Below are positions 58,925 through 62,820 of a DNA stretch of 64,000 nucleotides, piece after piece. Within the stretch, counting starts at the first letter, position 1. Every line of letters starts with the position of its first letter. This stretch comes from Parcubacteria group bacterium Gr01-1014_8 (GTDB lineage Bacteria > Patescibacteriota > Minisyncoccia > Phycocordibacterales > UBA2100). A model generated the notes under the pieces. The model was not told the origin of the DNA. It did not search any database and saw only the letters and a program-made list of their open reading frames with translations. The stretch is taken from assembly GCA_007376385.1 (NCBI GenBank), contig VMGC01000003.1, forward strand, positions 64,001 to 128,000. Reading direction: 5' to 3'. The position numbers were made by a program, and so were the translations under genes.

Positions 58925-60121
58925 ATGACACGAGGCCTTATTCTCGCAAGTTCAGCCGCATTCATCGTGCTTCTTGGCCTTGGCAGCGTGTTCATAGCGC
59001 AAACATACGAAACACCTTCAGATCCGAATATCGCGGTGACTGTGCTCAAAACATGTGCGGAGCACAGACTCGTCGCTTGCGCACGACCCGAGATCCGGAG
59101 GCTTCTTACTAATATGTCCGGCGCAGAGATACTGGACCTGTTTTCAGAAAAATTTTCAACCGTAAAATGCCACACACTAGGACATATTGTCGGCCAGGAA
59201 CTCTACCTTGCAAAAAAGAATGTCGAGCATGCGCTTGCGGTATGCAACAATGCATGTGCTTCTTCGTGCGTACACGGCGTTATCGGCGAAGCTTTTTTGC
59301 AAGAAGCTGGCATTACAGAGAAGGAAGGTCTCGATACCCTGCATATGAGTCCGGAAGATATACGTGCGCTCGGTATACGACTGTGCGCATCTGTAAGTAC
59401 GTGCCACGGCGTCGGTCACGCCCTCTTTATGGCATACGGAGAATTTCCGCCTGCACTTGCCGCATGTTCGGAAATAGCGTCAGGAGCCAGACGCACGTTT
59501 TGCTATCGCGGCGTATTCATGCAGTACGCCGACATGGTCTCCGAAAATAGCGTGCGAGATGCTGAATACATATCCTTGCCTGCGCGTGGATCGCTTCAGT
59601 CTCTTTGTGCGCAAACTTCATCTGATGAATTGCGGGCATGCATGCGATACCTACCCCGCATATACGCAGAACTCACGGACAGGAGCCAAGCTGGGCTTGA
59701 GAAGTTCTGTGAATCATATTCCGACGCAGAACGGCGGATCGGCTGTTTCCTAGGAATTGGCGTAGCCCGCGCTGATATGGTCTTTAAAGATCCAGCGGCC
59801 ACGCATCATGTCTGCGAGGATCTTGAGATGACAGGTGACAGAGCGTCCTGTACGCTCGGTATGATCTCGTCGGCTGCGGAATATAAACGAATCCCTGAAT
59901 TGCTCTCTTATTGCCAGGCTGTTGGCGAACTCTTTGTGCGCCACATCTGCTATCACGGTGTTTTCCAAAGCCTAAGCTTCATGATGGCGGAACGTGCAGA
60001 AACAGAAGTCATGTCTGAGCACAAGAAATTATGCGAAGGACATGGAAGCGAATGCTTGAACGGCCTCTATCTGCACAATGCCGATCCATGGGAGACCATC
60101 GTCGGCACGAGCAAAAAGTGA
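58925..60121 (+). CDS. membrane-anchored protein built from about 8 Cys/His-containing repeats (C-x9-13-C-[HY]-H-G-h)
   Basis: Start chosen at MTRGLILASSAAFIVLLGLG. Repeats such as VKCHTLGHIVG, STCHGVGHALF, HICYHGVF. Confidence 0.5.
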   Translation: MTRGLILASSAAFIVLLGLGSVFIAQTYETPSDPNIAVTVLKTCAEHRLVACARPEIRRLLTNMSGAEILDLFSEKFSTVKCHTLGHIVGQELYLAKKNVEHALAVCNNACASSCVHGVIGEAFLQEAGITEKEGLDTLHMSPEDIRALGIRLCASVSTCHGVGHALFMAYGEFPPALAACSEIASGARRTFCYRGVFMQYADMVSENSVRDAEYISLPARGSLQSLCAQTSSDELRACMRYLPRIYAELTDRSQAGLEKFCESYSDAERRIGCFLGIGVARADMVFKDPAATHHVCEDLEMTGDRASCTLGMISSAAEYKRIPELLSYCQAVGELFVRHICYHGVFQSLSFMMAERAETEVMSEHKKLCEGHGSECLNGLYLHNADPWETIVGTSKK

Positions 60122-62820
60122 TGCCGTATACTGCAGGAGTGGAGCTCTTCTCGCGGCATCGCACGAAGTTTTTATACGGCGCTGCCGGCATTTCGGCATT
60201 CCTGATTGCCGCAAGCATCGTGTATCCCCCTCTGTGGCTGCTCGTTTTTGCGGCCCCCGCGCCTTTCTTCGCGGCCCTTCTCTCGCGTGAGATCGTTTCT
60301 TCCCGCATACATGCCATAACTGCGGGATCCGTATTCGGCATCGTCTTCAACGGCGTCATCAATGCAAGCGGATGGGCAGTATACCCCCTCGACTGGATAG
60401 GGGTCGACGCTCCCTTGCTTTCAGCGGCGATGATCGGCATTGCCTGGATCTTGCTTTCATGTCTGATGGGGATTACCAGCGCATTTTTTGCATTGCTCAT
60501 TTTCGAGATAAGAAATCGGCACCACTCCGATATTTTTCTGATCTCAAGTATTGGCATCATTTGGCTCATTGCCGAATCGTTCCGCGTGTTCCTCTTTTCC
60601 ATCTTTATGCTTGGTGCGGAAAGCGGCCTCGATATTGGATTCTCCCTCGGCTCGGTCGGATATGCGTTCGGAAATGCATCAAGCGAATTTTGGATAGCTC
60701 TCGCCAGGTGGGGAGGTGTTGCCCTCCTCTCGCTGTTTCCCATTCTGCTTGCAGCAAGCTTATCCTTCGCCATCGCCGCATGTATACGCAAAAAAAATGG
60801 AGTGCGTCGGTACCTCCTGTTATCGGGTGCCATTCTGTTCGTATTCCTCGGCAGTTCAGCTGCCGCAAGCTTTGCCGCCGAGCGGGCTCGCGGTTCAACA
60901 AGTGCCTGGAAAGATACTCCAAAACTGACGATCGTGATGGCGCAAACGAATTTTCCTGCTCAACTCACGCTGAGCACTGAAGAAAACGCCGAGCGGACGG
61001 ATGTTGTCTTTGACATCGCAGAAACGCTGAAACGGCTTGCCATCAAACCCGACGCGCTCATCCTACCGGAGGGCATAGGATCTCGCATCGATCTATCGAA
61101 CTACGCCGCGATATCCGAACTTTTGCCGGATAAGACATTACTCGTTCATGGAAAATACGAACACCGTATCGGGAAGCCGTCCGTCGTACAAGTCCGCTCG
61201 CACGTTATCGGAGGCGGTACAGAGGTCACTGACAAGCAATTCATCATTCCATACGGCGAATACCCTCCCTATCATCTGCAGCTGCCCTTGAAGTACCTCA
61301 ACTACCGGCTTTACGCGGCTTTAAAAAAGAATCGAGAGTACGTCGGCGGAAACAACGTTGCTCTCGGCAGTGCGGCAAAGATACCGGTAGGAGTGCGGAT
61401 GTGTTCGGAAATATTTTCTTCACGGCTCTACAAAGACTTAACAGCTACGCATGGTGCGGGAATCCTCGTGCATTCATCTTCAATTGCCATGTTCCACGAC
61501 TCAAATTTTATCCAGCGGGAAATGCGCTCGGCGGCGCGCATCCGAGCTGTCGAGAATCGCGTCCCGCTCGTGCAAGCCATGAACGGTGCGCGCGGAACTG
61601 CTTTTGATTGCCGCGGAAAAGAGCTTATCCCCGAATTCTCATCCGCACTTTTCAACGTATATTCCATTTCACGCGAAGCATCGTGCGTAGGAGAAAATGT
61701 CAACGAGCGGGCGCGACCTGCACAAAGCCGGCTCTCATGGAATAAAAAAATGAAAGCCGCAGCTTTACATGCGTGGTATTCGCTCTTTCCGGAACAGGCC
61801 GCTAAAAAGCTCGGTGGTCTGAACATGATGCAGATAAGTATACGGGAAACAGAACTCGAATATTGGATGCGGATTTTCGGTTACAAGAACATTTTTGACG
61901 AGATAGAGAAAGACGGTTTAGATCCCCTGCAACGGCCCGCTGATGCGCGCGTCGTTGTCGGCCAATGTCACACGCAAGCTCACTATGCGGGGCGGATGGC
62001 TGTAAAATTGTTTAACCTGTCAGCACTCACCGAAAATATTATTGATATTCGATGTGGATTCGGCTTTTATCACGGGATCATAGAAGCCTCGCTCGGAAAT
62101 TTGGGAAGTGATAGAAACGTCAAATCATTTTCCGAGAAGTGCCAAGCATATGGAGATAACCCCCTGCGTCGAGCCTCCTGCTTACACGCACTTGGCCATG
62201 GTCTCATGGTGTTCTACAATTACGACCTTCCAACGGTGCTCGAAAAATGCAGTTCTCTCCCCTCATCAGATCTTGGAAAAAAGCTGTGCTACCACGGGGC
62301 TTTTATGGAAAATATTTTCTCTGATCTGGGATTCGGTGTGTCAGAGCACGAATCGGAGTGGATAGGCGGAAGCGATCCGGACTTCCCTTGCGTGGCAAAA
62401 TCCCTCGATTCACTACCAGCCGCAGTACGGGAGCAGTGTTATGCGAATCAATCTCTTGTGTGGGGTTTAAAGCGCGGCGGATTTGACTTTAACAACGCAC
62501 AGACAGGCTGCGTGCGTGCACCACGAGAAGTAAGAGATATGTGCTTCATCGCAATCGGCTATAACGCAGCATTGCCAATAGCGCATGCCGACGAGAGAAA
62601 GGTTATCGAAGGGTGCGCAACTATGCCGGGATCTTCCTATGAAAAAAAATGTCTTGTGGGCGCATTGCTGATCCGCAGCACATTGTGGCCATCAGAAGCA
62701 GGTCTGAAAAACCCTCTATTTTGTTCCGCTCTCGGATATAACGACCTTGCACTGTGTGAAAATTTCGTCAAAGAAACGCTCGATTGGATATTCGAAACAG
62801 AAAAGGAGCCTGCACGTTAA
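60121..62820 (+). CDS. Lnt-like (CN-hydrolase) membrane N-acyltransferase fused to the same Cys/His-repeat domain
   Basis: Multi-TM N-terminus. CN-hydrolase triad context (LILPEG, HGKYEH, VRMCSEIF). C-terminal ~370 aa carry CHTQAH..., CLHALGHGLM, CYHGAF repeats. Its ATG overlaps the upstream stop (ATGA). Confidence 0.6.
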   Translation: MPYTAGVELFSRHRTKFLYGAAGISAFLIAASIVYPPLWLLVFAAPAPFFAALLSREIVSSRIHAITAGSVFGIVFNGVINASGWAVYPLDWIGVDAPLLSAAMIGIAWILLSCLMGITSAFFALLIFEIRNRHHSDIFLISSIGIIWLIAESFRVFLFSIFMLGAESGLDIGFSLGSVGYAFGNASSEFWIALARWGGVALLSLFPILLAASLSFAIAACIRKKNGVRRYLLLSGAILFVFLGSSAAASFAAERARGSTSAWKDTPKLTIVMAQTNFPAQLTLSTEENAERTDVVFDIAETLKRLAIKPDALILPEGIGSRIDLSNYAAISELLPDKTLLVHGKYEHRIGKPSVVQVRSHVIGGGTEVTDKQFIIPYGEYPPYHLQLPLKYLNYRLYAALKKNREYVGGNNVALGSAAKIPVGVRMCSEIFSSRLYKDLTATHGAGILVHSSSIAMFHDSNFIQREMRSAARIRAVENRVPLVQAMNGARGTAFDCRGKELIPEFSSALFNVYSISREASCVGENVNERARPAQSRLSWNKKMKAAALHAWYSLFPEQAAKKLGGLNMMQISIRETELEYWMRIFGYKNIFDEIEKDGLDPLQRPADARVVVGQCHTQAHYAGRMAVKLFNLSALTENIIDIRCGFGFYHGIIEASLGNLGSDRNVKSFSEKCQAYGDNPLRRASCLHALGHGLMVFYNYDLPTVLEKCSSLPSSDLGKKLCYHGAFMENIFSDLGFGVSEHESEWIGGSDPDFPCVAKSLDSLPAAVREQCYANQSLVWGLKRGGFDFNNAQTGCVRAPREVRDMCFIAIGYNAALPIAHADERKVIEGCATMPGSSYEKKCLVGALLIRSTLWPSEAGLKNPLFCSALGYNDLALCENFVKETLDWIFETEKEPAR

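Follow-up and report, generated by a model that had tools for sequence, protein, structure and literature searches.

A Lnt-type acyltransferase fused to a His/Cys solenoid module of a large, possibly metal-binding family in a Parcubacteria group bacterium

Two adjacent genes of Parcubacteria group bacterium Gr01-1014_8, a member of the Candidate Phyla Radiation (CPR), were investigated in a 64,000-nucleotide stretch of contig VMGC01000003.1 (positions 64,001 to 128,000, assembly GCA_007376385.1), which is referred to as a whole as the window. Their products, here termed ORF1 and ORF2 (open reading frames 1 and 2), are the hypothetical proteins G01um10148_727 and _728 of the NCBI record. ORF1 and residues 611–896 of ORF2 are paralogous copies of one all-α solenoid module of ∼300–360 residues, while residues 1–530 of ORF2 constitute a membrane acyltransferase of the apolipoprotein N-acyltransferase (Lnt) family that has an Lnt-type fold and an intact Glu-Lys-Cys triad, and in which the eighth transmembrane (TM) helix, TM8, is replaced by the module. 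The novelty lies in the unprecedented attachment, to an enzyme of the Lnt family, of an extracytoplasmic module from a large, uncurated and possibly metal-binding family. We lean, with modest confidence, towards the view that the module is a disulfide-stapled extracytoplasmic solenoid, that its invariant five His and one Met form a metal centre, and that it acts together with outward-facing membrane enzymes; in ORF2 it would be tethered, where TM8 is otherwise found, next to the active site of Lnt.

That the two proteins have a Cys/His-rich domain in common had been proposed in an earlier reading of these genes (the sequence-only reading), and the proposal is upheld by three types of comparison. 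BLASTP aligns residues 81–241 of ORF1 with residues 615–770 of ORF2 (E=1e-7), a hidden Markov model (HMM) built from other family members only, with no window sequences, matches ORF2 residues 611–896 with 92.8 bits (E=1.2e-30 in a single comparison), and the module is internally repetitive, with E values of 4e-7 to 8e-5 when ∼70-residue column blocks of the family alignment are compared by hhalign. The features that define the family are H-x3-H, C-x-H-G, H-G-x-G-H and G-V-F-M, followed by at least four C-x(10–12)-C hairpins. All are present in ORF1 and in ORF2 611–896, where the sole deviation from the family invariants is one Cys pair shifted to 757/773. The window holds just these two copies.

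It had also been considered that the repeat might turn out to belong to a well-known family, and no such relative was found in Pfam, NCBIfam or PDB sequences. Neither Pfam nor NCBIfam has a match for ORF1, the C terminus of ORF2 or eight other members, a PDB profile search with the module returned nothing, and the module is not matched by the profiles of the Sel1, TPR and HEAT helical-repeat families. The literature searched on Cys-rich repeats, cupredoxins or Lnt in CPR bacteria yielded no description of the module family. A reading as a c-type cytochrome was rejected because neither ORF1 nor ORF2 contains the haem c motif CXXCH; the family motif is C-x4-C-[Y/x]-H.

The structure of ORF1 was modelled with AlphaFold2 (AF2) on a 24-sequence alignment. 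The model is all-α (pLDDT 92.3, pTM 0.88) and consists, according to DSSP, of an N-terminal membrane helix, ten hairpins of ∼35 residues that each pair a short with a long helix, and a capping helix. These ten helix-turn-helix hairpins take the place of the approximately eight units of ∼28 residues described earlier, and C-x(9–13)-C-[HYF]-H-G fails as a general unit, since even a loose regular expression matches only three sites in ORF1 and one in ORF2. The signature that recurs across the module is C-x(10–12)-C. In hairpins 5–9 the short helix ends at the first Cys, and the second is found in the long helix, about six residues from its start. The invariant His residues are confined to hairpins 2–4 (CHxxxH, CxHG and C(x)HGxGH) and hairpin 5 has GVFM, so that the motifs of the module as a whole are written (C)HxxxH, CxHG, C(x)HGxGH and GVFM(E/Q). 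Comparison of the fold with the PDB gave generic solenoid matches only (HEAT, ARM, TPR, PPR).

Conservation was evaluated over 215 module instances in the 150 proteins that ranked highest in the exhaustive search described below. The Cys pairs 181/193, 228/239, 262/274, 297/309 and 330/342 (ORF1 numbering) are 97–100% conserved. The optional cysteines co-occur, with phi coefficients of 0.99 for C82/C111, 0.75 for C44/C52 and 0.62 for C107/C115, and such paired gain and loss is the behaviour of disulfide partners, unlike that of independent metal ligands. Together with the helix positions, this co-occurrence strongly suggests that each helical hairpin is stapled by an intra-hairpin disulfide. 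The cysteines, with their five invariant pairs, would thus be disulfide partners and not, as had been supposed, metal ligands paired with His. In ORF2 the corresponding pairs are 710/723, 757/773, 797/808, 832/844 and 868/879. Secreted α/α hairpins of ∼36 residues, each bridged by a disulfide, are known from HcpB and HcpC (SEL1-like) and from the CagY repeats of Helicobacter (PMC2581425). The module resembles the Hcp proteins in its tandem, presumably disulfide-stapled α/α hairpins. However, it has no sequence relationship to them (no Pfam Sel1/TPR matches) and a different Cys spacing, and the invariant His/Met cluster is found only in the module.

This cluster comprises H83, H87, H161, H165 and M199, which are 100% conserved, and H117, which is 98% conserved. 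The other non-Cys invariants are G118, G164 and G196, and 62% of modules have Glu at position 200. The six His/Met residues are located 3–12 residues into four consecutive long helices (79–97, 114–127, 157–171 and 187–205) and would be at similar heights; consecutive long helices of a solenoid lie side by side. Conservation and helix positions therefore single out the five His and one Met, instead of a Cys/His set, as the candidate metal ligands, and they suggest a putative transition-metal site that is possibly binuclear (HxxxH+H and HxxxH+M). The metal is possibly copper, a suggestion made because family members are recurrently paired one-to-one with His-rich cupredoxin-like domains. The whole cluster is kept in ORF2 as H617, H621, H651, H689, H693 and M729. 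A helix-borne His/Met site (HxxxH, H, M) is present in the CnrX sensor, and in type-3 copper centres a helix bundle supplies ligands in two sets of three. With two HxxxH pairs, a His and a Met on neighbouring helices of an extracytoplasmic all-α domain the module would be comparable to both, if it binds metal as proposed, whereas no sequence or fold relationship to either is detectable.

Hydropathy analysis shows a single N-terminal hydrophobic segment in ORF1 and in 145 of 160 family members. The anchor helix of ORF1 is preceded by R3, which argues for an N-in orientation that would place the module outside. All hydrophobic segments of ORF2 fall within residues 16–253, with none thereafter. 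The CN-hydrolase domain faces outward in Lnt and no TM helix lies between it and the module, so both domains of ORF2 should be extracytoplasmic. Hydropathy and Lnt homology thus make a strong case that the modules sit outside the cytoplasmic membrane, in accord with the location first suggested for the repeats. The lipobox [LVI][ASTVI][GAS]C is absent from ORF1 and convincing in only about 3 of the 160 family members, and with so few lipoboxes the module proteins were dismissed as lipoprotein substrates of Lnt.

The N-terminal part of ORF2 had been described as a polytopic membrane region followed by a CN-hydrolase domain, as in Lnt, and hydropathy, profile matching, alignment and fold search all agree with that description. 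The NCBIfam profile TIGR00546 (lnt) matches residues 84–500 (E=1.7e-25), covering positions 4–394 of its 395. A Foldseek search of the PDB with an AF2 model of residues 1–560 (pLDDT 82, pTM 0.84) returned Lnt structures as all of its top 24 matches (E∼1e-14, TM-score 0.67–0.73), followed by soluble nitrilases (E∼1e-7); a PDB sequence search with ORF2 or with a 3-sequence Lnt profile gave no match. Residues E317, K372 and C428 align with E267, K335 and C387 of Escherichia coli Lnt and are also invariant in eight members of the subfamily, so the catalytic triad, whose absence had been named as an outcome that would refute the earlier reading, is intact. Other residues essential in E. coli Lnt are W237, E343, Y388 and E389. 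The two glutamates are kept in ORF2 as E380 and E430, and W237 and Y388 are replaced by Leu and Ser, respectively. TM8 of the E. coli enzyme has no counterpart in ORF2, where the linker has one amphipathic helix (540–555) at the usual TM8 site. ORF2 thus shares with the Lnt enzymes of E. coli and Pseudomonas aeruginosa (PDB 5N6H, 5N6M, 5VRG and 5XHQ) the polytopic domain, the outward nitrilase fold, the triad and the E343/E389 equivalents. It differs from them in that the identity is only 15–20%, in the loss of TM8, in an extracytoplasmic extension of ∼370 residues, and in its CPR host.

Lnt had been thought unexpected in a monoderm-like lineage. However, Lnt homologues are known in high-GC Gram-positive bacteria (PMC3850990), and in Ppm1 (Rv2051c) of Mycobacterium tuberculosis Lnt is fused to polyprenol-monophosphomannose (PPM) synthase, with the two encoded by separate adjacent genes in relatives (PMC3460810), so that neither a monoderm Lnt nor a Lnt fusion is new in kind. 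Ppm1 resembles ORF2 in that a Lnt domain is fused C-terminally to a second domain in a lineage that is not Gram-negative, whereas the partner is a glycosyltransferase-type synthase in Ppm1 and an extracytoplasmic His/Cys solenoid in ORF2. No literature was found on Lnt in CPR bacteria.

The fusion itself is as unusual as it first appeared, because it is the sole case among the best 150 of 7,428 module proteins and seven relatives of the Lnt part. Only ORF2 among those 150 has a long non-family N terminus, and none of the seven relatives (404–589 residues) has a C-terminal module, the closest ending at 487–517 residues. Three of them (P0174, P0176 and P0178) carry PF20154 (LNT_N) or PF00795 (CN_hydrolase). 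A 296-residue ORF downstream of the relative in locus L001 was considered as a split-off module and proved not to be one. A single case, closest relatives that end before the module, and a linker modelled at low confidence are what would be expected if a Lnt gene had been joined to a downstream module gene by chimeric assembly, by a frameshift or through loss of a stop codon. Against this, ORF2 is open without a break over 2,700 nt and the identical 899-residue product is on record from NCBI, ENA and Logan. In addition, the module in ORF2 lacks the N-terminal anchor helix and the first Cys pair of the family, as found in the free-standing gene, and two intact genes simply read through would not give such a product. 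We accordingly regard an assembly artefact as unlikely and give the whole explanation next to no weight.

Both ORFs are present as first described, and the CPR origin assumed for them is borne out by the NCBI record. The NCBI start of ORF1 is an upstream ATG at 58856, which gives 421 residues, and the frame of ORF2 opens at 60031. The annotated 899-residue product of ORF2 begins at ATG 60121, a start that fits the length of the NCBI product. The tight translational coupling proposed for the two genes stands, with a stop codon of ORF1 that overlaps ATG 60121 by one base or the alternative GTG 60118 by four, although the junction reads GTGATG and not ATGA as had been stated.

Lnt genes are found beside module genes in at least five other loci as well. 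In locus L015 a Lnt gene (9510–11045, −) that scores 136 bits, above the NCBIfam cut-off, is convergent with a module gene 25 bp away, in L034 and L051 Lnt abuts the end of a module array, and in L048 it lies between two such arrays. A Lnt-like gene flanked by two module genes is also present in L020, which was reached from an ORF2 relative. Among about 34 non-redundant loci ascertained through the module, four contain Lnt. By a rough estimate that makes no correction for phylogeny, about 1–2% of loci this long would be expected to do so in genomes of ∼1 Mb. The neighbourhood association of Lnt and module is accordingly likely but not proven.

The module family is very large, is uncurated, and belongs to CPR bacteria with some archaeal members. 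A word-index search had found 23 clusters for ORF1 and three for ORF2, which suggested a tiny family. For the module this impression, and with it the earlier notion of a rare domain, was overturned by an exhaustive profile search of 1.84 billion representatives of clusters at 50% identity, in which 7,428 representatives matched at E≤1e-3, 6,057 at E≤1e-10 and 1,939 at E≤1e-30. A genome scan located the ORF1-like subfamily in metagenome-assembled genomes labelled Nomurabacteria and Saccharibacteria. The family extends to archaea, as the Logan SRR20820740 contig (L017) encodes a TATA-binding protein together with P0091, a protein with the order module-module-cupredoxin-cupredoxin. On the same contig the gene for a PMT_2-like polytopic protein comes after that for P0091.

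The commonest architecture is a membrane-anchored single module of ∼400 residues, and proteins among the best 150 have from 2 to about 9 modules. The largest number was seen in P0027 (3,580 residues, on an 831-kb ENA contig), with 8–9 tandem copies, and several other proteins of 1,100–2,100 residues have 3–5 copies. Tandem arrays of 3–8 paralogues occur in nearly all of 26 annotated metagenomic loci of at least 5 kb. About ten of the best 150 proteins contain cupredoxin-like domains of ∼130 residues before or between modules. Matches to Pfam PF13473 (Cupredoxin_1) or PF00127 (Copper-bind), the latter plastocyanin-like, were obtained for P0091, P0073, P0040 and P0145, with the order cupredoxin-module-cupredoxin-module in P0073 and P0040. 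These recurrent partners are His-rich, with a conserved HWPASxxHPTH...HDH, and the domain is encoded, fused or free-standing, in about 12 array loci (among L021–L051).

The neighbours in module loci are largely secreted or membrane proteins without an assigned role. An unannotated family of ∼555 residues with a single TM segment recurs beside module arrays, as does a polytopic membrane family with weak signals of PMT_2 (GT-C glycosyltransferase) or TPR, and in L018 the stop codon of one such polytopic gene (6472–8001) overlaps the start of a module gene. Searches for the function of the polytopic proteins, of the 555-residue family and of a conserved 397-residue protein encoded in the window gave weak PMT_2/TPR hints only.

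Much of this would be compatible with a non-catalytic, metal-free scaffold or adhesin repeat that has expanded at the surface of episymbiotic CPR and DPANN organisms and binds host or envelope ligands, its His cluster being structural or ligand-binding and the Lnt fusion an incidental read-through. The tandem paralogues, the proteins with up to about 9 modules, a fold that resembles only generic protein-binding solenoids, the secreted or membrane neighbours and the single fusion all fit such a role. However, the five His and the Met are kept in 98–100% of 215 otherwise highly divergent modules (∼20% identity) while the remaining surface varies freely, a pattern typical of a chemical centre and not of a binding surface, and the repeated one-to-one pairing with a His-rich cupredoxin-like domain is likewise hard to reconcile with a metal-free scaffold. 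We consider this explanation rather unlikely, though it deserves to be kept in view.

In the window, ORF1 and ORF2 are part of an island of ∼16.5 kb (46316–62868) that splits the S10 ribosomal operon and contains YcaO/SagB genes, genes for PaaK-like ligases and several genes for proteins of no assigned function. The island cuts off rpsJ (62868–63263, −) from rplC (45708–46316), rplD, rplB and rpsC; in L001, L003 and L011, too, rpsJ has Lnt-like genes or module genes as neighbours. The island set resembles pathways for thiazole/oxazole-modified microcins (TOMM) in its SagD-like YcaO and its SagB reductase, and no description of the gene set was found in the literature searched. Genes of the ORF1 type are syntenic with it (two PaaK-like ligases, PRTase-PQQ, the 397-residue protein, SagB and YcaO) in at least four other CPR loci, L006 and L012–L014, and partly in L003 and L011, a link that the sequence-only reading did not mention. 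The relatives of the Lnt part of ORF2 are located among genes for CapK/PaaK-like ligases, a nitroreductase, a PQQ propeller, 2-oxoglutarate (2OG) oxygenases, HTTM, a DsbA-like protein and small secreted Cys-rich ORFs.

Small ORFs in and near these clusters have some of the character of peptide precursors. One of them (50127–50453, −), just downstream of the gene for the 397-residue protein, encodes 108 residues that include a TM segment and a tail rich in Cys, Ser and Gly (…GSCSSCSSCTSDGCSDGGCGGCAGD…CCDGCAGG…) that resembles the core of an azole-peptide precursor, and the same position in other loci is occupied by a 66-residue TM protein (ME.ATTT.IVLKELAGNPPP…). Small Cys-rich ORFs with a signal peptide and CxxxC/CxxC are present in the window (55731–55931, −), in L006 (1804–2136) and in L020 (9550–9837), in each case adjoining module or Lnt-like genes, and cannot be aligned with one another by BLAST. 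As neither of the two window ORFs shows sequence conservation between loci, both were rejected as conserved precursors.

This setting raises the possibility that ORF1 and ORF2 function in the adjacent YcaO/SagB pathway, where the module would bind, mature or protect against a secreted thiazole/oxazole or Cys-rich peptide, and the Lnt-like domain would move a phospholipid acyl group to an amino group of the peptide to give a lipidated RiPP (ribosomally synthesized and post-translationally modified peptide). The synteny, the SagD and SagB affinities, the neighbours of the Lnt relatives, the two Cys-rich ORFs of the island, and the replacement of Lnt residues W237 and Y388 in ORF2 are all in keeping with it. 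Against it, no YcaO/SagB genes are located near the wider module family (L007, L009 and L021–L062), so that a peptide-pathway link is confined to the ORF1 subfamily and cannot be what the module does in general; the candidate precursors are not conserved; and Lnt is not known to act on a non-lipoprotein acceptor. As an account of the two proteins we judge it improbable.

The favoured reading, a stapled solenoid with a metal centre that acts beside membrane enzymes, would operate as follows. The module would be a surface metal-binding or redox unit and not a bundle of Cys/His metal fingers, since it has an invariant His5/Met set and is paired one-to-one with cupredoxin-like domains. It may work with outward-facing membrane enzymes, given that Lnt genes recur near module genes, and the Lnt-module neighbourhood may have become a single polypeptide here, which would keep the module near the thioester-forming active site. 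The tethered module could then bind or prepare the acyl acceptor. This acceptor may differ from a classical lipoprotein because W237 and Y388 are changed and the island encodes YcaO/SagB, PaaK-like ligases and small secreted Cys-rich peptides.

Several observations weigh against this proposal. The cupredoxin-like partners lack the type-1 copper Cys ligand, and no cupredoxin-like domain is encoded in the window. Multi-module proteins, with up to nine identical modules, resemble binding or structural surface proteins more than enzymes. The TIGR00546 score of ORF2 (90.0 bits) is under the curated cut-off of 132.9, and Pfam finds no match in ORF2 at E≤0.1, CN_hydrolase included. Genes of the ORF1 type mostly show synteny with PaaK/YcaO genes instead of Lnt. 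Elsewhere the Lnt genes close to modules are separate genes, for the most part convergent, and those of L015, L034, L048 and L051 encode CPR homologues with a normal C-terminal TM8. The fusion was seen only once. A more far-reaching version would make the module a new class of extracytoplasmic metalloprotein, in which a disulfide-stapled solenoid with a binuclear His5/Met centre, perhaps of copper, is fed by the Cys-less, His-rich cupredoxin-like partner for redox chemistry or metal handling at the surface of ultra-small CPR and DPANN cells, and is coupled here to a Lnt-type enzyme that lipidates a YcaO-modified or Cys-rich secreted peptide and not a lipoprotein. We regard this version as speculative and quite improbable in its entirety.

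Table 1. Coordinates of ORF1, ORF2 and associated genes (window positions unless a locus is given).
Feature	Position	Strand	Remarks
ORF1	58925..60121	+	398 aa; N-terminal membrane anchor and one complete His/Cys solenoid module
ORF1 signal-anchor helix	58934..59002	+	about residues 4–26; hydropathy; R3 before helix
ORF1 hairpins 2–5, putative metal centre	59159..59539	+	invariant H83, H87, H117, H161, H165, M199
ORF1 codons of the putative centre	H83 59171, H87 59183, H117 59273, H161 59405, H165 59417, M199 59519	+	
ORF1 hairpins 6–9	59585..59983	+	invariant C-x(10–12)-C pairs 228/239, 262/274, 297/309, 330/342; probable disulfide staples
Gene junction GTGATG	60118..60123	+	ORF1 stop TGA 60119–60121; ORF2 start ATG 60121 or GTG 60118
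ORF2	60121..62820	+	899 aa; fusion of an Lnt-like acyltransferase with a single His/Cys solenoid module
ORF2 polytopic membrane domain	60166..60879	+	about residues 16–253; equivalent of Lnt TM1–7
ORF2 CN-hydrolase (nitrilase-fold) domain	60913..61680	+	about residues 265–520
ORF2 catalytic codons	E317 61069–61071, K372 61234–61236, C428 61402–61404	+	E380 and E430 also conserved
ORF2 linker	61681..61950	+	residues 521–610; low-confidence model; no hydrophobic TM segment
ORF2 C-terminal His/Cys solenoid module	61951..62808	+	residues 611–896
Conserved 397-aa protein without assigned function	50528–51721	-	
PRTase and PQQ β-propeller fusion	51720–53429	+	
SagD-like YcaO	53475–54902	+	E=6e-55
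SagB-family dehydrogenase	54905–55633	+	123.7 bits against a cut-off of 78.4
Small secreted Cys-rich ORF	55731–55931	-	
PaaK/CapK-like adenylating ligases (two)	56181–57458 and 57455–58822	-	
Recurrent unannotated neighbours of module arrays (both families)	L007 7215–8882; L009 8128–9930 and 10598–12364; L018 6472–8001		

The tiny genomes of CPR and DPANN organisms are rich in unannotated surface proteins, and a family of more than 7,000 clusters represents a sizeable part of this unknown surface proteome. Lnt-family enzymes are documented in CPR bacteria, for which no description of lipoprotein maturation was found, and the island in the S10 operon, with its YcaO, SagB and PaaK-like genes, is a candidate peptide-modification system. 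The unique Lnt fusion and the recurrent Lnt-module neighbourhoods provide a concrete functional link for the module family, which also offers, in its five His and single Met, a sharply defined candidate centre. Binding of copper or some other metal by these residues, if it occurs, would suggest that organisms thought to be nearly devoid of surface redox chemistry or metal handling are capable of one or the other.

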